Below are positions 1,724 to 61,533 of a stretch of 64,000 nt of DNA, one piece after another. The position numbers and the translations under genes were made by a program. Origin of the DNA: an uncultured archaeon (GTDB lineage Archaea; Thermoproteota; EX4484-205; JAAOZP01). Where the stretch lies: contig CALIBN010000024.1 of the NCBI GenBank assembly GCA_938045545.1, positions 6,274 to 70,273 on the forward strand, read 5' to 3'. Position 1 is the stretch's first letter. Every line of letters starts with the position of its first letter. The notes under the pieces were generated by a model. That model was given only the letters and a program-made list of their open reading frames with translations. It did not search any database and was not told where the DNA came from.

Positions 1724-1909
1724 TTAAGTATGTATCTTCGATGCTTGTTCTCCCCGCGTCCCCCAGTTGCTCCTCGGCACATCGTGAATTATTATGTTAA
1801 GCTATTCAGGTTTAACACCTATCTTCTCGAAGGCTCTCGTTATCCCTTTTATAAGCTTCTCCTTCTGCTCCTCGGAACGGCCCTCCCACATTTCAACTAT
1901 AACCACCGG
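1724..1909 (-). pseudogene. 4-oxalocrotonate tautomerase family pseudogene
   Basis: PVVIVEMWEGRSEEQKEKLIKGITRAFEKIGVKPE*LNIIIHDVPRSNWG; in-frame TAG at 1802-1804 and damaged start (ATCCG instead of ATGCCG). Confidence 0.8.
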
Positions 1910-2025
1910 ATCCTAACCACCCTTCACCACTTGTTTGCAGCGTCATATTTAGGTTTTAGTCAACCGGCATGTTTAAAATTGACAGCCGGGTTTCTAAGAA
2001 GGATTCGGGTTGGTTGGGCAGCCGC

Positions 2026-2877
2026 CTATCGCACTAAGACCGTAAGCACATAAGTGTACCTGGTTTCACTCCACTCAGCATATGGGAAAAAGGCTTCTAA
2101 AACATAGGTGCCCTCCTCGTCGAAAGCATAGCTGTATTCGGCTTCGATGGTTCCGCCTGCTTTTAAAACCCTGTTTTGAACAACCTCTATACATAGTTTT
2201 TCAGGATCGTGGCCAACCGGGTACAGCTCGGTTCTCTCATCCCCCGGAGCCCGTAGACGTATTTTGAAATCCGGACTGCACGGCGTTGGGGAAGAATAGG
2301 TGAAATCCTCCTGCGCAGGGTTTAAAGCTACCGCAAGTATTTTCAACGTTTCACCCTTGTTGACAACCAGCTTATCCGTCTTCAAGTAGAAAACTATTTT
2401 CGAGTAGCCCATTGCGAAACTGTTCAATTCCAGCAGCAGGCTGGTGAGGCTGTAGAGTTCTCCAGGCAATTCTCCACTAACATCCGTCCAATAATACGTT
2501 ACTATCCTACTCTTGCCGTAAACAGTCAGGTTGTAAATGAAATAGTCCGCCCCGCCTCCAGGCTCAAGCTTTAAGCCATCCGGGTACGCTTCGAGAAGAG
2601 TCTTCATCCTTCGCAGCAATTCGTCGTTTGTTGAAATCGGTATTACTGAGGAGCCGCTCTTGTTCCTAGCAAGGTCGTTGAAAACGATGCTTCCATTCGA
2701 ATAGTACTCGTATTTTTCACGCCTAGCCCAAAAACCGCCTGAAACCGTTAACTCCATCGTTTTCTCAGGCTTTCTTTGAAAACCGATTATAATGATTGTT
2801 GCAGCAGCCAGCATCACCAGTACCCATTGAAAAACTTTAAGTTTCAACCCGTTCATAATGCTTACCCAACTATTCAA
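2026..2877 (-). CDS. Membrane-anchored or secreted protein with C-terminal BsuPI-like (proteinase inhibitor) domain
   Basis: N-terminal hydrophobic helix; GGADYFIY motif; LKTDKLVVNKGE...CIEVVQNRVL beta-sandwich. Confidence 0.5.
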   Translation of the reverse strand: MNSWVSIMNGLKLKVFQWVLVMLAAATIIIIGFQRKPEKTMELTVSGGFWARREKYEYYSNGSIVFNDLARNKSGSSVIPISTNDELLRRMKTLLEAYPDGLKLEPGGGADYFIYNLTVYGKSRIVTYYWTDVSGELPGELYSLTSLLLELNSFAMGYSKIVFYLKTDKLVVNKGETLKILAVALNPAQEDFTYSSPTPCSPDFKIRLRAPGDERTELYPVGHDPEKLCIEVVQNRVLKAGGTIEAEYSYAFDEEGTYVLEAFFPYAEWSETRYTYVLTVLVR

Positions 2878-2967
2878 GGGTATATAATACTATTTTTTAG
2901 AACACTAGCCAGTTAAGCTGAACCGGCTAAAGACTTATTTCCCATCGTCTGATCGTAAATATTCGAA

Positions 2968-4026: not shown

Positions 4027-4839
4027 TTAAACGTTTAAATCAAGCACGCTATATCTTAATTCTCCTCCTTCGACCCAGCATACTAGCAAATTGTTATTTT
4101 TCAACGGAGACCAGTTCCCCCTTTCTGTTTTCTCAGACGCGACTATAATATGATCCTTATCGATTTTGAAGCACATCTCGTATACCGGTGCGTCTCCGTA
4201 GCACATTGATGGACCAGGATTATACAGGTATCTCGTGAAGGCGTAGAGCCTGCTGCCGTCTGAGAATATCGTGTTCAAACTAGTGAACGGTGCCTCAAAC
4301 CTGCTGACCTTCTCCTCTAAAAATATTTCCATAAGTGTCTGCTCGACTTTTCTGAAGGCAGTTATCACATCACCCTCCTTCTCGATAAGGCTGAGCAGCA
4401 GGTAGAAGTATGTCTCACTATCGTTTCGCCCTTTAATTAGGCTCGCATAGGGACCCAGCCTCCTTGAAACCTCGTCGGGAATATTGATCGTGCCGTTGTG
4501 CGCTAAAACATATTTTGAATGGTTGAAAGGCTGAGAGTTTTCAAGCGATATGAGCATTTCTCGCACCAGCCCCCTTGGGTTGCTTGCTTTCCTCACGTGC
4601 GCGATGATTATCCTGCCCCTGGCGGCTTTAGCGGCCTTCTCAAACTCTTCCCTATCCTCGTAAACCGGCTTATCGCTTTTGAAGATTATTGGGGTGCTTC
4701 CTCCAAGGTAGAAGCCTATGCCCCAGCCGTCTGACTGTCTCCCTTTAAAAGCTTGCGCGAATAGGGAGCACTCAGAGTTTAGGAGATGGTTTTCAACACT
4801 GCCAGCTCTCGCGAAAATTGCCCCCAGGAGCCTGCACAT
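4027..4839 (-). CDS. Class II glutamine amidotransferase (EgtC/YafJ-like)
   Basis: N-terminal MCRL, DGWGIG, AHVRKAS, HNGTI, DSE, VASE. Confidence 0.9.
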   Translation of the reverse strand: MCRLLGAIFARAGSVENHLLNSECSLFAQAFKGRQSDGWGIGFYLGGSTPIIFKSDKPVYEDREEFEKAAKAARGRIIIAHVRKASNPRGLVREMLISLENSQPFNHSKYVLAHNGTINIPDEVSRRLGPYASLIKGRNDSETYFYLLLSLIEKEGDVITAFRKVEQTLMEIFLEEKVSRFEAPFTSLNTIFSDGSRLYAFTRYLYNPGPSMCYGDAPVYEMCFKIDKDHIIVASEKTERGNWSPLKNNNLLVCWVEGGELRYSVLDLNV

Positions 4840-6444: not shown

Positions 6445-8410
6445 CTATGTTTGAACTACGATTGGTATCGCCATATTCATCCTCGGCAGTAATGCTATTG
6501 CTTCACCCATTTTCAGCTCCTGAATTTTTAAGGCTTGCTCCTCGTTAAGGTGCATCGTATCCGCGATCTTTTCAACATCACTAGAGTACTGCAACCTAAG
6601 GCAAATTATAGTCCCGCACAATCCCAAGACATCTCTCGACACCGTTAATGGTCTCTGATCTATAAGCCAAACAGACTCTCCGAACTTCCTCATCTCCCTG
6701 AGCATCTTCTCCACTATGGTCTCCTGACCCTCAAACCTAGCTGGGGCGATGTTATGGGCTTCCTCGCAGACTATAACGTGCGGCAAACCCCTGTTGGGCT
6801 TCTTCCTTCTATAATCGTAAACCCGCTTCAGCATCATCCACGTAAATATGTTTGCATCCCTATCCGTATCCAAGTCGCTGAGATCAAAGATGACCATATT
6901 TGAGAGAAGCCTCTCCATCATCCCTTCCCGTTCACCGATTGCGTCAAAAACTTTCCCAAAACTTCCTTGAGTGAGCTCGCTCAACCTTCCTACTAGCGAG
7001 AACAGCTTGTCCCTAGCTTTTCCTGAAGGAAGGAACATCAGGTCTTCAGAGTCAACGCTCCTCTCGAGGGATTCCACGAAGTCTACGAAGTCTGGGCGTT
7101 TTTTCCTCTTTAACATACTTCAAATACATCCTCCTGAAAACGTGGGAAACCAATGGCCCGAACTCATCGGGCCAGGCCATCGCGAAGACCTCGCCCAGGA
7201 TCTTAGCATGGCCCTCTGGGTCACCGTGGTGCTCCAAGAGGTTTATCTTGGCGTTATTCGCATCGAGGACCAAGGCGTCATCGAATTCATCAACGTATTC
7301 CCCATGCCTGTCGAAGACCATCGCAAAACCTCCTAGCTCCCTGTATCTCCTCAGAAGTGCCTTTGTTAGAGTGCTCTTCCCTGAGCCCGGGACGCCGAAT
7401 ATCGCCATGTGAAGAGGCAGATCTTCTATGCCTATCTTAACCTCAATCCTCTTTCTCATAGATTCGTATATCCTACGAGTATTCCATTCCTCTCCAGCCC
7501 AGCTGGGTCAAAGGCCCCGAAGTCAACGATCCTCTTGGGCGTGTAAGATGCGCTCGGCGTTATGGGCTCCGGGAAGCTTACGAATGACGATAGCTCATTC
7601 GCTAGTTAGGTGGAGTCTTTTAGAATCCACGATTCCCCTGGCGAGAATGCTCCTCGCTACCCCACTTAGACCCAGCCAACCGGCCTCTTCCAGCTTAACT
7701 CCGTACGATGAGGAGAAGGCCGCTTTAACTGCCTCCACATAATTCCTCTGCTCAAGATAGGCTTGTTTAGGGCTTCTTGTTGAAGGACCTATCACGACGA
7801 TAATGGGAGAGCACGTCCAACACCCAACATCGTTGCTAATCCTTTCGTATCTCTGACGAAGCCTCTCGAGCTCTGTGGATTTGTCCAAGTCATACCCTAT
7901 GAGCTCTCCCCTGCTGTTATAGAGCCCCTTCTCCCTCAGCTTTCTGTAGGCTTTCGAGTACCGTAAGGAAATGCTCCTCTTCTTGGCCCAGAGGCTTAAC
8001 GCGTGGAAAACTCCCTTGCAAGACTTGGACGCAGAATCTCGGTGAGCAACCGGATTCTGCAGAGGATCTTAAAGCCTTTTCAAGCGCATCTTCTGGAATG
8101 TTGAGCTCATCTTCCTTTAATTTCATGGATAGGAAAGAGGCTGCGGAGACCCTTCGGCCTTTAAGCAGGATCAAGACATTCCTATGCTTTGAGATCGGTA
8201 GGCCTCCCAAGGGCCACAGGGCGGCCTCGGGGGAAGCCTCAAGAGCCTCTAGCTCAGCGCCCGGAAAGCCGGCGAGTACGCTGGCCCTCATCCTCGAGAA
8301 TATTTTACTGAGCCCTTCAATCGACCGGGATGCTGCTGAGAGCCTCGCCTCATAGTTAAACGGCTCGTAGGATACCGTGAACATACCTTCAAAGCCGGTT
8401 GCGGAGAGGC
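6445..8410 (-). pseudogene. Frameshifted paralog of the HerA/VirB4-like ATPase
   Basis: Four ORF fragments (7917-8417, 7595-7888, 7052-7459, 6445-7116) collinear with 16499-18694, including GVPGSGKS and IVCEEAH. Confidence 0.9.
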
Positions 8411-8483
8411 CATGCATGGCTTTTTCGCTAGGTACTGGCGCTAGCCAGGGCTATCGCTCCAAGCTCCCGGGAGGTGATGTGGA

Positions 8484-9580: not shown

Positions 9581-11275
9581 CTAGCGCCGAGCCCCGTAGT
9601 CTTCACTGGTTTCTTTAGTAACCAGGTACTGCAGGTCGGTCTCAGGATCCTTAACCGGGATGATCCTTATTCCGCCGACCCTGCTCACCTTCTTCACGTT
9701 CTCCGGGTATTTCCCCCCGTGAAGGTGGAAGATTTTAACCCTGTGTCCTCTTTTAACGATCTGCTCTAGACAGGGAAGCGCCTCCTCAATGTTCTGCCAG
9801 CCGCAATCCGTTATAATGTTTATCAAAACCCTGTTCTCGCTCTCGGAGACGAGCCTCATGATCTCGTTTAGAGGAAGTATCGTCATTCCCCCGAAGTAGA
9901 GCGCTAAGGACAATTCCTTCTCAAGCGTCGAGCCCTGCCATTCTACAGAGTAGTAGTCTGTTGAGAAGGCTATTGAAGCTGTTTTCCCACCTATTCTCTC
10001 CACGGAAAGCAGGTTGATGAAGGCTGAGGTTGCAGCATTATGGATAACCTCCTGCATGCTTCTGCTGGCGTCTAAAACTATTAGGCTTGAGGGCACGTTG
10101 CTTACCGTCATGCTGCTCCCCTTCCCCTTAACCTCGCTCTGCCATTTCACCGTGTTTATTTCAATCCGCAGCCTTCCCTCGTCGAGGCTGGCCTCCAGAT
10201 CAAGGTCTTCAACCTCGTCCTCAATGTTCCAATCCATGGGGTAGCTGGATATTGCTAGATTCGGCTCAGGCCTCCTGCCCTCCTCAAGATATACGAGCAT
10301 CGTCCTCCTCGCCCTAGCCCTATACCAGCATACTTTCCAGAAGAGCTCTTCAACCATCTCGTTAGTCAACCCGGTGTACGGCTTGCTTACGCTCGTAGGC
10401 AGCCTGGGCTCCTGCCCGCCCTCAGGCTTAGCGCGGCGTATTCCCCCGGCTTCTCCCCTTCTGGTCTTTTTCCCACCCGCCGCTTTACCGCTTTTCCTAA
10501 TCGTCTTCTTAATCTCCTCAAGCTCAGAGTTCTTCAGCCTCGATTTAACCCAGTACTCGTAAAACCTTCTCGCCTCCTCGCTGTTTTTTATTCCCCCAAG
10601 CACCTCGTTAATCTTCTCAATAGTGTTCCTGCTCAAGTCCTCCCTTAAGGGGATGCTCGCGCCCGGGCCGGCAAGCTGCCTCGGTATTTCGGCTTTAACC
10701 CTGTTTAAAGAGAGGATGAGCGCCACCAGCCTCACTTTACTAAACCAGTTTCTTTCAGACCTCATAACCATGCTGATTTGCCTAGCCACGTTTTCAACGT
10801 TATAGTCGTATTCCCTATGGCTCTTTCTCAAGATGTGCCTGTAGGCTGCCTGAATATACCTTCCAACCCCCCTCTGCGAAGTGTTTAGAAACTGTTCGAC
10901 GTGATAAGGTGTTTCCCCGAACCTGCTTAAAAGGTAGAAGCAGTCAACGTTCAAGTCGGCGAACAGCAAGACTGAGAAATACGCGGTGCCCCAGTCCTTG
11001 CACGCACCGTAAGCCTCCTTCACCAGCTCGTAAGCCGTCCTAATGTCATACGGGCAGTAGTGCAGATGAGCAATCTCATGCCTGATGACGGACCTAAGAT
11101 ATTTTTCACCGTCAACCTTCTTCGGAACCGCCTCCGGAGAAATATGTACTTTTGAATCCACCACGAAAAAGGGTTTGCCACCTTCACCGTCATGCTTCAC
11201 TTCCAGTTCGCACGGTGGGAAATAGAGTTCACTCCTAACCTGCGCGAAAATCCTTCTTACTTCTTCATCGTCCAT
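9581..11275 (-). CDS. vWA-domain protein with N-terminal HExxH metallopeptidase-like domain
   Basis: RHEIAHLH; MIDAS DASRSM, GMT, ITDCG. Confidence 0.75.
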   Translation of the reverse strand: MDDEEVRRIFAQVRSELYFPPCELEVKHDGEGGKPFFVVDSKVHISPEAVPKKVDGEKYLRSVIRHEIAHLHYCPYDIRTAYELVKEAYGACKDWGTAYFSVLLFADLNVDCFYLLSRFGETPYHVEQFLNTSQRGVGRYIQAAYRHILRKSHREYDYNVENVARQISMVMRSERNWFSKVRLVALILSLNRVKAEIPRQLAGPGASIPLREDLSRNTIEKINEVLGGIKNSEEARRFYEYWVKSRLKNSELEEIKKTIRKSGKAAGGKKTRRGEAGGIRRAKPEGGQEPRLPTSVSKPYTGLTNEMVEELFWKVCWYRARARRTMLVYLEEGRRPEPNLAISSYPMDWNIEDEVEDLDLEASLDEGRLRIEINTVKWQSEVKGKGSSMTVSNVPSSLIVLDASRSMQEVIHNAATSAFINLLSVERIGGKTASIAFSTDYYSVEWQGSTLEKELSLALYFGGMTILPLNEIMRLVSESENRVLINIITDCGWQNIEEALPCLEQIVKRGHRVKIFHLHGGKYPENVKKVSRVGGIRIIPVKDPETDLQYLVTKETSEDYGARR

Positions 11276-12904: not shown

Positions 12905-14176
12905 GTGATGAGAACATCCAGAATACCGGGCTTCTACAATTTAAGCGTGGCGGAGAGGCTGAGCAGGATAGTAGAGTACGCCGGGCTGACGGAGGAGGAG
13001 GCTAAACTCCTCTCGAAAGAGGGCAATCTAAGCCTAGAGACCGCTGACAGAATGGTTGAAAACGTGATTGGGACAATGGCTTACCCCTTCTCTGTTGCAC
13101 TCAACTTCCTCATAGATGGTAAAGAGTATATCGTCCCCATGGTTATAGAGGAAACCTCCGTCGTAGCGGCCGCCAGCAACGCTGCTAAAATGACTAGGGC
13201 GAAAGGAGGGATATTCACGGACGCCACAGAGCCCATCATGATAGGGCAGGTGCAACTGACTGGAGTAACCAACCCCCTCACGGCTAAAATGAAGATCCTT
13301 GAACACAGGGACGAAATATTGAAGCTTGCCAACGATCAGGATCCTGTTCTCGTAAAGCTCGGCGGAGGCGCTAGAGATGTTGAAGTTAGAGTGGTGGATA
13401 GTAACGTGGGCCCAATGGTGATAACGCATCTCCTAGTTGACGTTAGGGATGCGATGGGGGCGAACGCTGTCAACACTATGTGCGAAGCCGTAGCACCCCT
13501 GATAGAGAAAATAACCGGTGGAAAAGTATATTTGAGGATAATATCGAACCTTGCCGATAGAAGACTCGTAAGGGCTAGAGCGACGGTTGCCAAAGAGGAG
13601 GTCGGCGGCGAGGAGGGTGTCGACGCAATAGTGAAAGCATGGGCTTTCGCAGCAAGCGACCCCTATAGATGCTCAACACATAATAAGGGGATTATGAACG
13701 GTGTCATTGCAGTTGCTCTGGCTACTGGGCAGGACCATCGAGCTATAGAGGCGGGTGCCCACGCTTTCGCTGCAAGGACGGGCAAATACCTGCCTTTAAC
13801 CGTCTGGGAAAAGGATGAGAATGGCGATCTCGCTGGAACGCTGGAGATGCCCATGGCGGTTGGCTTAATAGGCGGGGCAACTAAAACTCACCCTATAGCG
13901 AGGATCGCGATTAAAATCCTTGGCGTTAAAACCGCGACGGAATTGGCGAGAGTGATGGGCGCCGTAGGTCTAGCTCAGAATCTTGCAGCCCTTAGAGCGT
14001 TGGCGCTCGAGGGGATTCAAGCAGGCCATATGAGGCTTCACGCGCGTAACATAGCGATTATGGCGGGTGCCACGGGAGACCTGATTGAGAAGGTCGCTGA
14101 GCAGATGATTAAGGAAAGGAAGATAAGGTTCGATAGGGCCCAGGAGCTCGTCAAGGAATTCACGGAGAAGAAGTGA
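12905..14176 (+). CDS. hmgA: Class II HMG-CoA reductase
   Basis: ENVIG, EETSVVAA, DAMGAN, THNKGIMNG, GIQAGHMRLHARN. Confidence 0.95.
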   Translation: MMRTSRIPGFYNLSVAERLSRIVEYAGLTEEEAKLLSKEGNLSLETADRMVENVIGTMAYPFSVALNFLIDGKEYIVPMVIEETSVVAAASNAAKMTRAKGGIFTDATEPIMIGQVQLTGVTNPLTAKMKILEHRDEILKLANDQDPVLVKLGGGARDVEVRVVDSNVGPMVITHLLVDVRDAMGANAVNTMCEAVAPLIEKITGGKVYLRIISNLADRRLVRARATVAKEEVGGEEGVDAIVKAWAFAASDPYRCSTHNKGIMNGVIAVALATGQDHRAIEAGAHAFAARTGKYLPLTVWEKDENGDLAGTLEMPMAVGLIGGATKTHPIARIAIKILGVKTATELARVMGAVGLAQNLAALRALALEGIQAGHMRLHARNIAIMAGATGDLIEKVAEQMIKERKIRFDRAQELVKEFTEKK

Positions 14177-14258
14177 CATCCCCATGCTAGGGTTCCCGGT
14201 TCGTCGCCCTGTGGGTTCATCCTACCGGGTTATGGGCTGTGTCAACTCAGCCCCTGCC
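14174..14258 (-). ncRNA. TnpB omega-RNA scaffold / right end, copy 2 (predicted guide CTTCTTCTCCGTGAATTCC)
   Basis: Near-identical to 9492-9577; TGACA/TGTCA pseudoknot; overlaps the tnpB 3' end. Confidence 0.8.
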
Positions 14259-15265
14259 ATCCACATGTAGCGGATGGCTCGCTTCATTATGTTCATCGCT
14301 CCGTTGTAGTCTGCGTTGCATGAGTAGTTGCAGCTCTGGCATTTGAAGAGGCTTCCTTTGCGAGTTCCTCTATTTCCGCATTTATGGCATAGCTTCGAAG
14401 TGTTCTTCTCATTTACTTTTATTACTTTGATCCCGAGCCATCTAGCCTTGTACTCTATGAGCTTGCTGAGCTTGCGATAGGGGAATCCATTTAGTTTCCT
14501 GTTGAACCTCTTGCCCCTATCGCCATCCCTGATCCCCTTTAAGTTCCCCATTGCGATCATCGCATCCGTCTCCAAGGCCTCGTCCACTATCCTCCTGCTT
14601 ATCTTATGCAGAATATCGTTCACCATCCTTCTTTCCCTATCTCCAATTTTCTTGATCGCGCCGTATGCCCTCTTCATGGCGAGGCTTCTTCTTAGGTAAA
14701 AGAAGCGTCCCCTGACCCTCCTCAGCTCCCTGCCGTAAAACTTTGGGACCGGGTTGCTGGAATTGACTGTCGTAGCGACCCACCTTATCCCCATATCTAT
14801 GGCCAAGACATTCTTCGGGATCCTCTTCTCAACTTTCTTCTCAACGCAAATGTGGATGAACCACTCGTTGCCCCTGCGAATCACCTTGGCCTCCTTAAGC
14901 CCCATATCGCCCGTTATGGGCTCATGAGTCCTAATCGGAACCCTTATCCCTCCCCAAACGCCGTAGACGGGTATCTTAAGCAAGTAGGGGCTTTGCTCGA
15001 TTTCAATTCGGTAGGTGTCGTTCCTCAGCATTAGCGGATACTCCCCCTCCTTCAGCTTCCCGTTCAGCCTCCTCAGAAACCTCTCCGCGGCTTGCTTCGT
15101 GGCAGAGTATACCATAGCGGATTTCTCTCCCCTCAGGTAGCGCTGGAAGCTCTCGTACTCGCGCCTAAGGAGTTCCTCTTCCTCCCTCTTAAGCTCAAGT
15201 ATCTTCGCCTTTATAGTCTTCCTAGCTGTAACATAGTTACTTTTCTCTGATTCTGAAAAAGACAT
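14222..15265 (-). CDS. tnpB: TnpB RNA-guided endonuclease with rearranged RuvC-II
   Basis: LAIDMG (RuvC-I), AMGNL plus VNEKNTS (relocated Glu), CHKC/CQSC zinc ribbon, NADYNGAMNI (RuvC-III); SD AGGAGGTGG. Confidence 0.92.
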   Translation of the reverse strand: MSFSESEKSNYVTARKTIKAKILELKREEEELLRREYESFQRYLRGEKSAMVYSATKQAAERFLRRLNGKLKEGEYPLMLRNDTYRIEIEQSPYLLKIPVYGVWGGIRVPIRTHEPITGDMGLKEAKVIRRGNEWFIHICVEKKVEKRIPKNVLAIDMGIRWVATTVNSSNPVPKFYGRELRRVRGRFFYLRRSLAMKRAYGAIKKIGDRERRMVNDILHKISRRIVDEALETDAMIAMGNLKGIRDGDRGKRFNRKLNGFPYRKLSKLIEYKARWLGIKVIKVNEKNTSKLCHKCGNRGTRKGSLFKCQSCNYSCNADYNGAMNIMKRAIRYMWMAGAELTQPITR

Positions 15266-15279
15266 TTAGCACCACCTCC

Positions 15280-15430
15280 TGGGAGCCGGAGCGATAGCCC
15301 TGGCTAACGCTGATACTTAGCGAAAGCCACGCTGGGCCTATACCCGATTAAAAGCGGGTTCCAGCCACTACAAAGCAGGCTAAGAGGTTCTTTCTAAAAC
15401 TCCCTGTTTCATGCTCCTCCGCAGCTCCCA
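15280..15430 (-). ncRNA. Conserved ~150-nt structured 5' leader upstream of tnpB
   Basis: Closing stem TGGGAGC/GCTCCCA; begins ~26 nt after TATATA (15453-15458); compensatory changes against the copy at 61099-61250. Confidence 0.65.
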
Positions 15431-15466
15431 ATTATGTTAAACAGATGGGAGGTATATAGATATTCT

Positions 15467-15510
15467 GATGGCATATGGATGTCACTCGGATGGAACACGG
15501 ATGACACACG
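15467..15510 (+). repeat. Array A: four 11-bp tandem repeats, consensus GATGNMACACG
   Basis: GATGGCATATG GATGTCACTCG GATGGAACACG GATGACACACG. Confidence 0.85.
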
Positions 15511-15589
15511 GCCGCCTTTTTAAATATGCGGAGGGGGCGTTGCAACGGAGTAAAGCATTTCTACCTCTCCGAATGTTAAAAGTAGGCAA

Positions 15590-16390
15590 ATGGGGATGCT
15601 GGGACACGTAGTGAGGCTGTTTTCCGCTGTAATCATTGGACTGCTGTTTTCATACCTCGTTTATCGGGCCTTGACCACTCTAGATAGTTTCCTAGCATCG
15701 ATCCTCTCTCTCGGCCTCATGATGAGCATGCCCCTCACGCTAATCCTGGTTTTCTACAACAGGCTTCGCTGGGGAGCATTTTTCTTCGTGGCCGTCTGGC
15801 TCCTCTACGCCTCAGCGGTATGGCTCTACATGCTGGCCGGCTTTTTCACAACAGTCTTTCATGGACAGGCTTGGATACCCGTTTTCATATTAAGCATCGG
15901 CGGAATAGCCTTTCTCTTAGTTGTTCTCAGGAGGAGAGGGATAGGCCTCCCGCAGGTATTTCAAGGGAAAGGGGAGAGCTTGAAAGGTGTTAAAGAGATT
16001 CAGGAGGTTGCTGAGGAGCCCGTAGAAGGGGTCGTTGAGCCCGAGCCCCAAGAGGAGCCGGATTTCTCCCGAACCATGGAACTCCTGGATGAGGCCCACT
16101 GCAGGATCCTTGAAACCCTATTGGAGTCGGGCAGCCCGTATTCGAAGAAGGAGTTAGCCAAGGCTATTGGGGCAACATACAGAAGGGTTCTTAGGGCGGT
16201 CGAGGAGCTTGAGAAGCTTGGGCTCGTCGAGGTTAAGGAAGCACCGAGGAGTGCGAGGGGCTCCTCCGTAGTTCATGCCGTCAAGCTATCCCCAGCTGTA
16301 TCTAGGAGGAGCGAGCTGGCCAAGGAGATGGTTAAGAGGAGGATGGAGGAGCTCGGGGCGGTTAAGGGCAGGGCTAAAACAAGCGCATAA
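15590..16390 (+). CDS. Membrane-anchored winged-helix DNA-binding protein
   Basis: About four N-terminal TM helices, acidic linker, C-terminal wHTH (RILETLL...SKKELAKAIG.TYRRVLRAVEELEKLGLVEV). Confidence 0.8.
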   Translation: MGMLGHVVRLFSAVIIGLLFSYLVYRALTTLDSFLASILSLGLMMSMPLTLILVFYNRLRWGAFFFVAVWLLYASAVWLYMLAGFFTTVFHGQAWIPVFILSIGGIAFLLVVLRRRGIGLPQVFQGKGESLKGVKEIQEVAEEPVEGVVEPEPQEEPDFSRTMELLDEAHCRILETLLESGSPYSKKELAKAIGATYRRVLRAVEELEKLGLVEVKEAPRSARGSSVVHAVKLSPAVSRRSELAKEMVKRRMEELGAVKGRAKTSA

Positions 16391-16404: not shown

Positions 16405-16459
16405 CGTGTGTTATCCGTATGACATCCGTGTTCCATCTGAGTGCCATCCGTGTTACATC
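16405..16459 (-). repeat. Array B: five 11-bp repeats, inverted relative to array A
   Basis: Minus strand GATGTAACACG GATGGCACTCA GATGGAACACG GATGTCATACG GATAACACACG. Confidence 0.85.
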
Positions 16460-16498
16460 GGGATGCTTATGAATGGGGATATCGATGATTGAACGGAA

Positions 16499-18694
16499 TT
16501 GATCGAGGAGTTCAGAAGGGTAGTCTACGAGAGGGTTGAGGTGAGCAGCTTTAGGAAGCGCGTTGAGCAAGCCCAGCCTAAGCGAGTTAAGGCCTTCAAA
16601 ATCCTCGGAAGTACGGTTGTCCTAGGTAAAGACGTTTTCAGCGTTTCGGGGAGGCTTGTTTCAGAGATAAGGCTCAGGTCGGCTGATTACGAGGAGAATA
16701 AATCCGAGGTTAAGATGCTTCAAGGCCTTTCGGCAACGGGCTTCGAGGGAATGTTCACGATATCCTATGAGCCCTTCAACTATGAGGTGAGGTTCTCAAT
16801 AACCTCGAAATCCCCAAGGGAGCTTAGACTCATGGCTTCAAGGCTTAAGGCCTCAATACTGGCAAGCAGTCCCGGAGCTGAGCTCGAATCGCTTAGAGCT
16901 TCCATCGATAACGTGCTATGGCCCCTAGGAGGCTTCCCGGTCTCCAGGCGGGAAAACAGGTTGATCCTGCTTAGGGGTAAGGAAGTCTCAGCAGCATCAT
17001 TCCTGTTAATTAAGCTGAAAGAGGAGATGATTAGCCTTCTCGAGGATGGCCTTGAGAACGCCTTAAGGTCCTCTGCGGAATCAGGATGTTCGTTCAGGTT
17101 CTGCGTCCCGGTCAAATCATGCAGAGGATTCGCCCACCTTCTAAACACATGGGTAAAGAAGAAGGATATTCTATCCAGATATTCCAAGGCCTACAGGGAG
17201 CTTAGGGAGAATGGGCTTTTTAACAGCAGGGGCGAGCTCATAGGCGTTGACCTAAGTAAGTCAACTAAGCTTGAGCTTCTCCGCTCTCAGTACGAGAGGC
17301 TTAACGGACAAACGGGATGTTGGACATGCTCTCCGATAATAGTAGTGATAGGAACTCCCGAGAGGGACCCTAGGCAGGCTTGTGAAAAACAGAGGGAGTA
17401 CGTTGAAGCTGTCAAGGCATCTTTCTCATCATCCTACAGGGTTAAGATCGAGGAGGCTGGGTGGCTGAACCTAGGGGAGGTAGCGAGAAGCATACTCGTC
17501 AGGGGGATAACGAGCTTGAACAAACTTCATGTAACCGGCGATGAGTTATCTTGTTTCATAAGCTTTCCCAAGCCAATAACGCCAAGCATATCCTACATGC
17601 CGAAGAAGATCGTTGAATTCGGAGCCTTCGACCCGGCTGAGCTCAGGAGGAATGGTATACTCCTAGGATACTATGAATCCATGAGAAAGAGGTTTGGGGT
17701 CAGAATAGGGATAGAAGACCTTCCCCTACATTTAGCTATATTCGGCGTCCCGGGCTCAGGGAAGAGCACTCTAACAAAGGCACTTCTGAGGAGATACAGG
17801 GAGCTAGGAGGTTTTGCGATGGTCTTCGACAGGCATGGAGAGTACGTTGACGAATTCGATAATGCCCTAGTCCTCAATACGGATAATGCCAGGATAAACC
17901 TCCTAGACCACCACGGTGACCCGGAGGGCCATGCTAAGATCCTGGGCGAGGTCTTCGCGATGGCTTGGCCGGATGAGTTCGGGCCGTTGGTTTCACACGT
18001 TTTCAGGAAGATGTACCTGAAGTACATTAAAGGAGTCAGCCACCCCGATTTCCTGGAATTCGTAGAATTCCTCGAGAAGGACGCCAACTCGGAGGACCTG
18101 ACGTTCCTTCGCTCCGGAAAGGCTAGGGATAAGCTGTTCTCGCTAGTGGGGAGGCTTAGCGAGCTAGCCCAGGGGAGCATTGGAAAGGTGTTCGACACGG
18201 TTGGGGGGCAAGGGGGCGTGATGGAGAGGCTGCTCTCGGGCATGGTCGTCTTCGATTTAAGCGGCATGGATACGGATAGGGATGCGAACATACTTACATG
18301 GTTGATGCTGAAGCGAATCTACGATTATAGAAGGAAGAAGCCCAACAGGGGTTTGCCGCACGTTATAGTCTGCGAGGAGGCTCATAACATCGCTCCAGCT
18401 AGGTTTGAGGGCCAGGAGACCATAGTTGAGAAGATGCTTAAGGAGATGAGGAAGTTCGGCGAGTCTGTTTGGCTTATAGATCAGAGACCATTAACGGTGT
18501 CGAGGGATGTCTTGGGATTATGTGGGACCATAGTCTGCCTGAGGCTACAATACTCGAGCGACGTTGAGAAGACCGGGGACACGATGCACCTGAACGAAGA
18601 GCAGAGGCTGAGGCTGCAGGAACTCGAGTTGGGGGAGGCGATAGCATTGCTGCCGAGAATGAAGACTGCGATACCAATCACCGTCCAGCTGTAG
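16499..18694 (+). CDS. HerA/FtsK-superfamily (DUF87, VirB4/CedB-like) ATPase with long N-terminal domain
   Basis: GVPGSGKS Walker A, FDRHGEY, IVCEEAH Walker B, EMRKFG, IDQRP. Confidence 0.88.
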   Translation: MIEEFRRVVYERVEVSSFRKRVEQAQPKRVKAFKILGSTVVLGKDVFSVSGRLVSEIRLRSADYEENKSEVKMLQGLSATGFEGMFTISYEPFNYEVRFSITSKSPRELRLMASRLKASILASSPGAELESLRASIDNVLWPLGGFPVSRRENRLILLRGKEVSAASFLLIKLKEEMISLLEDGLENALRSSAESGCSFRFCVPVKSCRGFAHLLNTWVKKKDILSRYSKAYRELRENGLFNSRGELIGVDLSKSTKLELLRSQYERLNGQTGCWTCSPIIVVIGTPERDPRQACEKQREYVEAVKASFSSSYRVKIEEAGWLNLGEVARSILVRGITSLNKLHVTGDELSCFISFPKPITPSISYMPKKIVEFGAFDPAELRRNGILLGYYESMRKRFGVRIGIEDLPLHLAIFGVPGSGKSTLTKALLRRYRELGGFAMVFDRHGEYVDEFDNALVLNTDNARINLLDHHGDPEGHAKILGEVFAMAWPDEFGPLVSHVFRKMYLKYIKGVSHPDFLEFVEFLEKDANSEDLTFLRSGKARDKLFSLVGRLSELAQGSIGKVFDTVGGQGGVMERLLSGMVVFDLSGMDTDRDANILTWLMLKRIYDYRRKKPNRGLPHVIVCEEAHNIAPARFEGQETIVEKMLKEMRKFGESVWLIDQRPLTVSRDVLGLCGTIVCLRLQYSSDVEKTGDTMHLNEEQRLRLQELELGEAIALLPRMKTAIPITVQL

Positions 18695-24623: not shown

Positions 24624-25070
24624 TTGGAGAAGGAAGAGCTTTTGAAAATGCTCAACCATGCGCTTGAACTCGAGCACGCGGCTTATGTACAATACCTCAG
24701 CCATGCTGAGCTTATAGATGGTGATAACGCTGAACCGTTGATAGAGAGGCTTAAAGAAATCGCGAACGATGAGAAAACCCATCAGGAGAAGTTCAGGTCC
24801 CTGATAGGCATGCTAGGGGGAACACCCAGCATGGGCATTGCAGAAACCCATCCGGCTAAAACCGTTAGGGAAATACTTGAGCAGAATCTGAAGGACGAGA
24901 AAGAGGCTGTTGACACTTACAGGAAGATATATGGGGCGATAGTCGGGGGAAGAGGCAGAGGATACTATGATATGCTTCTTGAACATGAGGTTAGACACAT
25001 AATAATGGATGAGCAGGAGCACATTACAGAGCTAGAACTATTGCTTGGAAAGTCGGGCGAAAGCTATTAA
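24624..25070 (+). CDS. Ferritin-like / bacterioferritin-like protein
   Basis: ELEHAAYVQY, DEKTH, DEKEAVDTY, DEQEH diiron motifs. Confidence 0.85.
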   Translation: MEKEELLKMLNHALELEHAAYVQYLSHAELIDGDNAEPLIERLKEIANDEKTHQEKFRSLIGMLGGTPSMGIAETHPAKTVREILEQNLKDEKEAVDTYRKIYGAIVGGRGRGYYDMLLEHEVRHIIMDEQEHITELELLLGKSGESY

Positions 25071-25105
25071 AACGTTTTCGTTTTTTCTTTTTTTTAAAAA
25101 AACGC
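25071..25105. terminator. T-rich terminator region between convergent genes
   Basis: TTTTCGTTTTTTCTTTTTTTTAAAAAAA. Confidence 0.5.
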
Positions 25106-60494: not shown

Positions 60495-60993
60495 TTAAAA
60501 GGAGACATTAATGGGTGTTGCTGTTCTCATCCTCGGCAGCAGCGCTATCGCCTCTCCCAACCCGAGCTCCTGTAGCTTCAGCCTCTGCTCCTAGCTTAGG
60601 TGTATCGTATCAGCAATCTTTTCAACCTCGCTCTCAATACTGTTAAGGGCCTCTGGTATATTGGCCAAACCGATTCCCCGAACTTCCTCATCTCCTTAAG
60701 CATCTTCTCAACTATGGTCTCCTGCCCTTCGAATTTGGCTGGGACGATGTTGGGCCTTCTCGCAGACTATGACGTGCGGCAAACCTCCGTCAGGCTTCCT
60801 CCTCCTATAATCGTAAACCCGCTTAAGCATCATCCACGTAAATATGTTTGCATCCTTATCAGTATCCATGTAAGTCAAAAAATTACCATGTCTGAGAGGA
60901 GCCTCTCCATCATGCCCTCCTGCTCGCCGACAGTATCGAATACCTTTTCGATGCTTCCTCGGGTTAACTTGCTCAGCCTTCCTACCAGTGAGC
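60495..60993 (-). pseudogene. C-terminal fragment of the HerA/VirB4-like ATPase
   Basis: DANIFTWMMLKRVYDY...LPHVIVCE...LPRMRTATPI with frameshifts. Confidence 0.85.
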
Positions 60994-61018
60994 ACACCTT
61001 TCCACATATAAAGGCGAC

Positions 61019-61062
61019 CGTGCGCCACCCGTATTCCGTCCGCGTGCCATCTGAGCGCCATC
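61019..61062 (-). repeat. Array C: four decayed 11-bp repeats (counterpart of array A)
   Basis: Minus strand GATGGCGCTCA GATGGCACGCG GACGGAATACG GGTGGCGCACG. Confidence 0.75.
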
Positions 61063-61098
61063 GGAATGTCTATATACCGTCCATCTGTTTAAGATAAT

Positions 61099-61250
61099 TG
61101 GGAGCTGCGGAGGAGCGTGAAACAAGGAGTTTTCGAAGAGGCATCCTGGTCCGTTTTGTAGTGGCTAAAGCCCGCCTTTAATTGGGCATAGGCCACGCGT
61201 GTTTTCGCTAAAACACTAGCGTTAGCTAGGACTATCGCTCCAAGCTCCCG
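61099..61250 (+). ncRNA. Second full copy of the structured tnpB leader
   Basis: TGGGAGC...GCTCCCG after TATATA; homologous to 15280-15430. Confidence 0.65.
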
Positions 61251-61533
61251 GGAGGTGGTATAGAATGTCTTCTCTGGAATCAGAGAATAGAAGAATAGAG
61301 GTAACTATATTATAGTAGAAAAACGATGAAGATCCTGGGGCTGAGCGAGAAGGAGGGAAAGGCATGAGTACGAGAATTTCCAGCGATACTTGCAGGGCGA
61401 CGAACCGGGAACTCCTCACTAGGAGATGTCAAAGGAGGAAAATTAACGAATTATTGAGAAGCTAATTCTGAAATAATCGTGTTGAAAAGCCGGACTAAAG
61501 CTTTTTATATTAACTGTAATGCCTATATTGGCT

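Follow-up and report, generated by a model that had tools for sequence, protein, structure and literature searches.

The closest described relatives of the RNA reported here are leaders and guide RNAs of insertion sequences (ISs). In IS200 of Salmonella and E. coli, the structured 5′ untranslated region (UTR) of tnpA controls translation of the transposase and is processed into the small RNA (sRNA) 5′tnpA (PMC4513863, PMC5435999). In ISPpu9, the structure of the transposase 5′ UTR limits expression of the IS-borne gene, acting with two sRNAs (PMC8450116). Among elements carrying tnpB, the omega-RNA lies at the 3′ end of the element (PMC8612924, PMC10278001), and the group I intron of IStrons lies at the 5′ end of IS605/IS607 elements and interacts with guide-RNA biogenesis (bioRxiv 10.1101/2023.11.20.567912). 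Here we describe a stretch of about 150 nt, at positions 15280–15430, that lies between a TATA-like box and the Shine-Dalgarno (SD) sequence of tnpB in a mobile element of an uncultured archaeon of Brockarchaeota. The stretch was analysed within 64,000 nt of contig CALIBN010000024.1 (assembly GCA_938045545.1), hereafter the window, which is part of the contig numbered C24 in a 2.03-Mb metagenome-assembled genome (MAG) with 92% completeness. Two of the three listed DNA runs, from one study, contain the stretch, and the listing has no RNA run for this organism. Comparison of its copies and modelling of its fold suggest, with a probability of roughly 0.6, that it is a cis-acting structured 5′ UTR of the mobile element's own regulated promoter.

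The leader resembles that of IS200 tnpA in being structured, in preceding a gene of an IS200/IS605-family element, in being highly conserved among copies, and in that ribosome access is the proposed target. In IS200, however, a stem sequesters the SD and the antisense sRNA art200 adds repression, whereas here the SD appears to be open and an anti-SD-like strand to be tied up. Moreover, IS200 carries the leader on tnpA in bacteria, whereas here it is on tnpB in an archaeal host, and no sequence or Rfam likeness was found between the two. ISPpu9 shares with the present case the limitation of an IS-borne gene by 5′ UTR structure, but it is bacterial and its sequence is unrelated to the tnpB leader. 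The leader appears to be set apart from both by the host domain, the gene, the open-SD logic, and the portable promoter-leader module. The omega-RNA belongs to the same element, runs in the same direction, and is joined with the leader in one predicted transcript in deleted copies. It nevertheless stands at the other end of the element and bears no likeness to the leader, which also occurs without it. The IStron intron is likewise a left-side structured RNA of a tnpB element, whereas the leader is about 150 nt long, has no intron core, gave no match to an Rfam intron or ribozyme, and displays no visible splice-site logic. The literature search found no structured leader of tnpB, which is a weak negative, full texts not having been covered.

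Antisense-controlled structured leaders are also known from plasmids, such as the repA leader (CopT) of plasmid R1. Like CopT, the present leader is located in a plasmid-like element next to iteron-like repeats and has a conserved hairpin loop; in CopT, however, the antisense-controlled gene is a rep gene, whereas the genes downstream of the leader are not. To our knowledge, long structured 5′ leaders are rare in archaea.

The leader is present at about 10 places in the source genome and in 8 of the 17 genomes of the genus, as detected by BLAST and also by a covariance model built on the leaders. Outside the genus, nine genomes of the class were scanned with the covariance model, and one of them, G023, from a different family in the same order, was positive. 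A strict leader pattern matched eight loci in species genomes, all of them Brockarchaeota or Thermoproteota MAGs, and three loci in metagenomes, all of the L015 type, while viral contigs gave no match to it. Ten distinct full-length leaders were compared: the one in the window, L013, L014, L017, L020 (copy 4 in the window), L022, L023, and the trio L015, L016, and L031. They represent about eight lineages; identical duplicates (L025, L034–L040, and others) were excluded.

The position at which conservation sets in should be noted. Among the four elements with intact tnpB, the p-distance of the leader is 0.17–0.26, as against 0.45–0.64 at synonymous sites of tnpB (dS 0.7–1.5). The 110 nt upstream of the leader diverge by 0.22 in the closest pair and by 0.46–0.55 in the other five pairs. 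In 28 pairwise comparisons, identity is 0.81–0.83 for leader bases 1–110 and 0.67 both for the TATA box with its spacer and for the repeat arrays farther upstream. The spacer between the TATA box and the leader is 21 nt, fixed in length and variable in sequence. The distance from the TATA box to the first paired base is 21–22 nt in eight lineages, and the spacer is 20–21 nt in G023. The spacing between TATA box and start that is general in archaea is the basis of the promoter call and places the predicted start near G15429, at the first paired bases, about 26 nt past the TATA box. Conservation begins at this predicted start and extends to the SD, which is the pattern that an RNA-level function predicts.

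The first-pass annotation, which a model had made from the letters alone, had proposed a closing stem that ends exactly at the SD. The strands that it quoted are found on the minus strand as claimed (TGGGAGC, 15430–15424; CGGAG, 15421–15417; CTCCG, 15291–15287; GCTCCCA, 15286–15280), and GGAGGTG follows directly at 15279–15273. The fold of the single sequence is multibranched with a closing stem (−63.8 kcal/mol). The closing stem, formed by helices P1 and P1b (Table 1), comprises 14 bp, and P1 is present in all ten single-sequence minimum free energy (MFE) folds and in the RNAalifold consensus. RNAalifold contributes P1b (GGAGC/GCUCC), the H2 hairpin, and the long-range helix P2, in which UAGCCUGC pairs with GCCAGGGCUA. 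The loop of P3a, CUUUUAAU (15354–15347), is nearly invariant. Positions 15295–15304, the 3′ strand of P2, are able to pair with three different upstream strands.

Pairing and substitutions were evaluated on the ten leaders. Of 380 base-pair cells, 94.7% are paired. Double changes are found at 5 of the 38 pairs, a number that 18 of 500 shuffles attain. Covariation scores 0.243 as against 0.215 ± 0.011, with 2 of 500 shuffles reaching it, and slid partners give at most 0.14. Parsimony on the tree of the ten leaders assigned 37 substitutions that keep a pair and 6 that break one. Three of the former arise artificially from the rooting on the L017 branch and count as breaks, so that the corrected counts are 34 and 9 (p = 4e-7, with a pair-keeping null of 0.41 taken from the spectrum at 95 unpaired columns). 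For P1 and P1b alone, 15 of the 17 inferred substitutions keep the pair (p = 8e-5, same null). The first-pass annotation had proposed P1 and P1b, the latter in shifted register, from two copies, so that for these helices the remaining eight sequences provide a nearly independent test.

Individual changes illustrate this constraint. In P1, the L015 clade has changed a G-C pair to A-U, and L023 (its sister) and L017 show the G-U intermediates. In P1b, L013 shows a change from G-C to A-U and L017 one from A-U to G-C, with G-U in L014. H2 is paired in 98.6% of cells with one-sided changes only, and P2 in 92.5% with a double change in L020 and L017; the P3 and P3a helices are paired in 100% and 94% of cells, respectively. 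In P3a, ACCCG (15359–15355) and CGGGT (15346–15342) had been reported to covary with GCCCG and TGGGC of copy 4. One of these differences is a true double change (A-U to G-C), while the other is one-sided. The second helix for which covariation had been claimed, TGGCTGG (15367–15361) with TTAGCCA (15307–15301) against TGGCTAA with TTAGCTA, is correctly positioned, but it has one-sided changes only, with no double change in the ten sequences, and it competes with other pairings. G-U combinations occupy 47 and A-C combinations 7 of 310 cells. This excess of G-U over A-C indicates that the sense strand is the folding strand.

The leader in G023 provides an independent lineage. At this locus (L070, on contig C4 of G023), the closing stem is a perfect 15-bp helix in which CGGGAGCUGGAGAAG (798–812) pairs with CUUCUCCAGCUCCCG (928–942); P1b continues P1 within this helix, which ends at the SD. 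The P3/P3a hairpin is kept, with U-G replaced with U-A. A winged-helix (wHTH) gene homologous to that beside tnpB (42% identity) is again divergent from the repeats, TATA box, spacer, and leader. In the 2.7 kb around the leader, no TnpB, omega-RNA, or homolog of the 404-aa open reading frame (ORF) described below was found, and the TnpB relatives of G023, at most 37% identical, are located elsewhere in the genome. At 955–1150 of L070, the leader and SD are followed by a 3-codon frame alone (TTG TTT CTA TAA), and an ORF of at least 517 aa without a Pfam family begins about 200 nt past this frame. The original downstream gene in G023 seems to have been lost or replaced.

In L015, L016, and L031, the same arrays, TATA box, leader, SD, and approximately the first four codons lead into a 404-aa ORF that is not TnpB. 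The ORF belongs to no Pfam or NCBIfam family, and no right end or omega-RNA was found in the 170 nt past its stop, the extent of the locus. Its tnpB-like first codons suggest a recombination junction just inside the coding region. A cassette boundary at the start codon was considered for L015 versus L016 and rejected, since identity is 94% through the first ~650 nt of the ORF. The ORF is located at 1727–2941 (+) of L015. A homolog with 50% identity lies in the source genome at C22:3092–4285 and has no leader. The C-terminal D..E-x-K motif (..VVEVK..) is reminiscent of PD-(D/E)xK nucleases.

The presence of the leader before a non-TnpB gene, and its presence in G023 without TnpB, rule out an obligatory RNA partner of TnpB; the suggestion in the first-pass annotation that the leader is a second RNA component of the TnpB system is not supported. 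Comparison of these loci indicates that the leader belongs to a regulated promoter module beside the wHTH gene and serves different genes. At the level of comparative analysis, we regard as demonstrated the constraint on its sequence, the closing helix, the P3/P3a hairpin, the sense-strand polarity, and the portability.

In the mechanism that we propose, the regulated promoter would consist of 11-nt operator arrays and the TATA box, beside the gene for the membrane-anchored wHTH regulator. Transcription would begin at the first G of GGGAGC, and the first ~20 nt would pair with the last ~20 nt (P1 and P1b) to close a branched domain of about 125 nt containing H2, P2, P3/P3a with its invariant loop, and a variable hairpin. 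The closing helix would bury the 5′ end of the mRNA and so might protect it from 5′-end-dependent decay. It would also keep the C-rich, anti-SD-like 3′ strand (CGCUCC..GGCUCCC) occupied, leaving the SD free. Transcripts without the correct 5′ end, such as those reading through from outside, would adopt another fold in which the SD is less exposed. In this way the leader would serve as a portable module for translation and stability that favours transcripts of its own promoter only, whichever gene follows.

Several features are consistent with this mechanism. The 5′ strand of P1/P1b (GGGAGC..GGAGGAGC) is SD-like, whereas the 3′ strand is anti-SD-like and touches the SD, which the consensus fold leaves unpaired. 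For each of the nine leaders folded with a partition function at 65 °C, the native 5′ end gives the SD a higher predicted probability of being unpaired than 60 nt of upstream read-through does (0.58 versus 0.10, 0.94 versus 0.20, and 0.51 versus 0.46 (L031), as examples). Removal of the first 22 nt also lowers this probability in all nine. The effects on the SD and on decay, and any regulation, are predictions of the model. Translational control, proposed in the first-pass annotation, appears to be the most plausible class of function. An additional partner, protein or RNA, is suggested by the nearly invariant P3a loop and by the conservation of the joining strands.

A number of observations weigh against this interpretation. 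The single-sequence fold is unexceptional (z = −1.2), with 21 of 200 shuffles being as stable. The structure was chosen and tested on the same sequences, so that the pairing statistics are inflated. When G023 and the divergent copy L056 are added to give 12 leaders, 13 of 38 pairs show double changes and the score is 0.309 as against 0.244, with 0 of 500 shuffles reaching either value, but this alignment (A4) was fitted to the model and leans toward it. An all-versus-all scan of column pairs for double changes was uninformative because transitions dominate: hundreds of unrelated pairs appear to covary. Since such transition-driven double changes are common between unrelated columns, covariation seen in two copies is weak evidence. 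The interior fold is ambiguous; the alternative helix of the first-pass annotation has 90% of its cells paired, and the full model of that annotation 91.3%, slightly below the RNAalifold-based model. In the L015 clade, P1b contains an A-C mismatch and one nucleotide opposite P1 is deleted. The sequences represent only about eight lineages of one genus and one outside it, and the start and end of the leader, as well as its transcription itself, are predicted from sequence. The effect on SD exposure is modest in some leaders, as in L031, and the energy models are for 37–65 °C. Finally, copies resembling miniature inverted-repeat transposable elements (MITEs) that lack the 3′ strand of the closing stem nevertheless retain its 5′ strand fairly well. 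Would-be disruptive changes were counted by eye in 6 of 11 cases in partnerless copies and in 2 of 10 otherwise, a difference in the expected direction that falls short of significance (Fisher p = 0.18). Some of the conservation may thus have another purpose.

These MITE-like copies bear on the question of whether the leader is a module of the guide RNA. In many copies an internal deletion has joined the omega-RNA scaffold straight onto the promoter and the beginning of the leader, of which ~65 nt (type B) or ~112 nt (type A) are left. Further junctions occur at ~48, 83, 118, and beyond the start codon, with none seen 5′ of approximately leader base 48, and H2 is predicted in these copies too. 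The leader strand GCCUGCUUUGU, which overlaps the 5′ strand of P2, matches the complement of AUGAAGCGGGC, on the 5′ edge of the omega-RNA scaffold, at 10–11 of 11 positions in 18 of 25 elements, and three of the other seven are mostly alignment gaps. These features could mean that the leader, or its first 65–112 nt, is an OMEGA RNA module in which GCCUGCUUUGU pairs with AUGAAGCGGGC, locally in the MITE-like copies and across 1.1 kb in the full element, aiding folding or processing of the omega-RNA or coupling TnpB translation to assembly of the ribonucleoprotein (RNP). The pairing forms in two of three MFE folds and in the RNAalifold consensus of nine type-B copies, and one apparent compensatory change (U-A to C-G) was seen by eye in L033. 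Although 91.9% of cells are paired in type-B copies, covariation gives no support, 154–246 of 500 shuffles reaching the measures. By our own arithmetic, chance would give about 0.6 matches of 11 bp, G-U allowed, for two stretches 165 and 190 nt in length. In full elements the omega side is part of the coding sequence and so would be conserved anyway, and neither TnpB nor omega-RNA accompanies the leader in the L015 clade or in G023. We regard an OMEGA module as unlikely. A bolder version is likewise unlikely: here the first third of the leader would be a dedicated 5′ module of stand-alone guide-RNA genes, and GCCUGCUUUGU would toggle between its P2 partner and the omega-RNA edge 1.1 kb downstream, coupling TnpB translation to omega-RNA maturation in a TnpB clade without the canonical RuvC-II glutamate.

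If the leader were a sensor, either a riboswitch or an RNA thermometer as the first-pass annotation had suggested, a ligand or the temperature would shift the GGCU/AGCC-rich interior pairings and thereby access to the SD. Within the branched domain, some unpaired stretches are strongly conserved (GUGAAAC, UUUGUAGUGG, and the 8-nt P3a loop), several mutually exclusive pairings are possible at 15295–15304, and the host is known from hot-spring MAGs. Nevertheless, the SD is not sequestered in the consensus fold, Rfam gave no riboswitch or thermometer match, the genes served (tnpB and the 404-aa and 517-aa ORFs) have no common metabolic theme, the sequence reveals no ligand or temperature logic, and most copies are predicted to retain the conserved closing stem at 65 °C; a sensor is thus unlikely. 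The conserved P3a loop could instead be the kissing site of a cis-encoded antisense RNA, as in the copy-control leaders of plasmids. It contains UUUA, which fits the YUNR loop motif of antisense systems, and the setting is plasmid-like, with iteron-like arrays and a HerA/FtsK-type ATPase. This idea is very improbable: no antisense promoter or terminator has been demonstrated, the downstream genes are not replication genes, and the 47 G-U against 7 A-C cells point to selection on the sense fold.

The stretch might also act as DNA, namely as a left-end structure of the IS200/IS605 type that a transposase reads as single-stranded DNA (ssDNA). It is part of the repeated unit, and copies in three unrelated flanks have the same left boundary of that unit (CCACATATAAAGGCG); it is kept in MITE-like copies; G-T pairs are tolerated by ssDNA; and at least 14 omega-bearing copies, each with a different 3′ flank, indicate that the element has moved. 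The part next to the boundary drifts, however, and conservation sets in at the predicted start, about 95 nt farther in. The fold is branched over 150 nt rather than a short subterminal hairpin and has no likeness to the right end. Furthermore, the leader is kept, with compensatory change, before genes without a right end. The Y1 transposase (PF01797) was found in 0 of 17 genomes that are 70–94% complete, so that its absence is likely and unproven, whereas 6 of 14 control genomes were positive; no serine recombinase was found in the source genome. Since the leader serves different genes, a transposition signal is unlikely, and more so without Y1 or a serine recombinase. A DNA-level role is thus quite improbable, and a known IS left end or eroded tnpA, named in the first-pass annotation as what would refute an RNA, appears not to account for the stretch.

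At gathering thresholds, Rfam 15 matched nothing in the whole window, in agreement with the failure of the first-pass annotation to recognise a family. With E values up to 10, just two snoRNA fragments were obtained for 15230–15560, both on the other strand and outside the leader. The annotation had also held the leader to be distinct from the omega-RNA. The possibility of a diverged omega-RNA copy was rejected, since neither the omega profile against the ten leaders nor the leader profile against seven omega regions gave a match in nhmmer with --max and E up to 100. A small ORF within the leader was rejected by eye; the ATG/GTG that follows an internal GGAGG is replaced with GCG in several copies, and the reading frame is not maintained. 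Hammerhead and K-turn motifs, compared by eye with consensus sequences, do not fit in the order of elements or in the G-A pairs.

The features of the locus are listed in Table 1. Copy 4 and the 3′ part of the leader before copy 1 had both been pointed out in the first-pass annotation and are found where it placed them.

Table 1. Positions in the window of the leader, its helices, and the associated features
Feature	Position	Strand	Remarks
Structured leader	15280..15430	−	Predicted transcription start ~G15429; final base abuts the SD
TATA-like box, CTATATAC	15452..15459	−	From sequence
P1 5′ strand, UGGGAGCU	15423..15430	−	Pairs with 15280–15287
P1 3′ strand, GGCUCCCA	15280..15287	−	C-rich, anti-SD-like, immediately 5′ of the SD
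P1b 5′ strand, GGAGCA, inside SD-like GGAGGAGC	15412..15417	−	Pairs with 15288–15293
P1b 3′ strand, CGCUCC	15288..15293	−	From RNAalifold and pairing counts
H2 hairpin	15383..15404	−	From RNAalifold
P2 5′ strand, UAGCCUGC	15375..15382	−	Pairs with 15295–15304
P2 3′ strand, GCCAGGGCUA	15295..15304	−	Alternative partners 15361–15367 or 15326–15330
P3/P3a hairpin, GGCU..ACCCG, 8-nt loop, CGGGU..GGCC	15335..15366	−	In most single folds
Shine-Dalgarno, GGAGGUG	15273..15279	−	Invariant among the 10 leaders
tnpB, 347 aa	14222..15265	−	Pfam OrfB_IS605 and Cas12f1-like TNB; tblastn across genome
Omega-RNA scaffold and right end of element, ending ..GGAUGUCA	14174..14316	−	16-copy profile; nhmmer match at C24 20447–20589
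~11-nt repeat array, CATCCGTGTNC-like, 5′ of TATA box	15462..15522	−	Inverted repeat I15; alignment of copies
Copy 4, full leader of internally deleted element (leader, first codons, omega-RNA tail)	61099..61250	+	Sequence comparison
Leader 3′ part before decayed copy 1	8407..8470	+	Sequence comparison

The start codon of tnpB, ATG, is at 15265–15263. According to tblastn over the genome, this tnpB is the sole intact copy in the source genome, and its product scores 168.8 bits with the NCBIfam model guided_TnpB (cut-off 100). The omega-RNA at the tnpB 3′ end is complete and overlaps the stop codon. All four intact TnpB homologs (those of the window, L013, L014, and L017) have Gly at the expected catalytic Glu of RuvC-II (residues ~236–242), with ..AMGNL.. 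or ..MGDL.. in place of ..QMEDL.. of a solved Cas12f-like protein, while the RuvC-I Asp (IDMG) and the RuvC-III Asp (NADYN) are retained. This TnpB may be nuclease-dead or have a rearranged site.

On the other side of the leader, the membrane-anchored wHTH gene (15590–16390) is divergent from tnpB. An inverted copy of the array at 16415–16464 lies on the far side of the gene, so that it is bracketed by this array and the one at 15462–15511. In the alignment of copies, the array repeats are kept though the surrounding sequence drifts, and they are probably operator sites. The orientation of the wHTH gene relative to the leader in L015 is opposite to that in the window and L013, which indicates that the segment between the arrays was inverted during evolution. 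The 3′ part of a HerA/FtsK-like ATPase gene is present in three copies with 71–89% identity (6445–7468, 17672–18679, and 60504–61000), one of them truncated. A fragment of this gene directly adjoins the tnpB promoter region in copy 4 and at the contig end C1:199–328. These copies look like several decayed copies of one plasmid-like integrated element.

MITE-like loci in the source genome, composed of operator repeats, the TATA box, the initial 65–112 nt of the leader, and the omega-RNA scaffold, are located at C2:48112–48399, C4:1–314, C29:71718–72076, C16:13106–13323, C2:87225–87411, C14:4464–4675, and C1:24723–24932, and at 61007–61433 of the window. Past ..TGTCAA, the flank differs from one derivative to the next. 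They resemble free-standing genes for guide RNAs, and no transposase able to move them was found, with Y1 in 0 of the 17 genomes. Several type-B copies are preceded by a conserved repeat of ~60 nt (..ACCATATYCGGCGAGAAAGCCCATG.., a perfect hairpin, ..GAATCGCCCTTAAACG..), at C2 ~87420–87560, C16 ~13330–13470, C1 ~24940–25080, C14 ~4680–4820, and C29 ~10650–10740; it may mark a site favoured for insertion or the end of a different element.

The mobile element of this uncultured Brockarchaeota archaeon thus appears to carry a compact, roughly 150-nt RNA module whose closing helix, clearly defined, ends at the SD and which has been reused before at least three unrelated genes. The fusion of the leader to the omega-RNA in deleted copies suggests how non-autonomous elements keep their guide RNAs expressed. 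If the module does gate translation to the element's own transcripts, it would be an archaeal counterpart of the protection of bacterial ISs from outside activation, and it would offer a portable expression part for thermophilic archaea.

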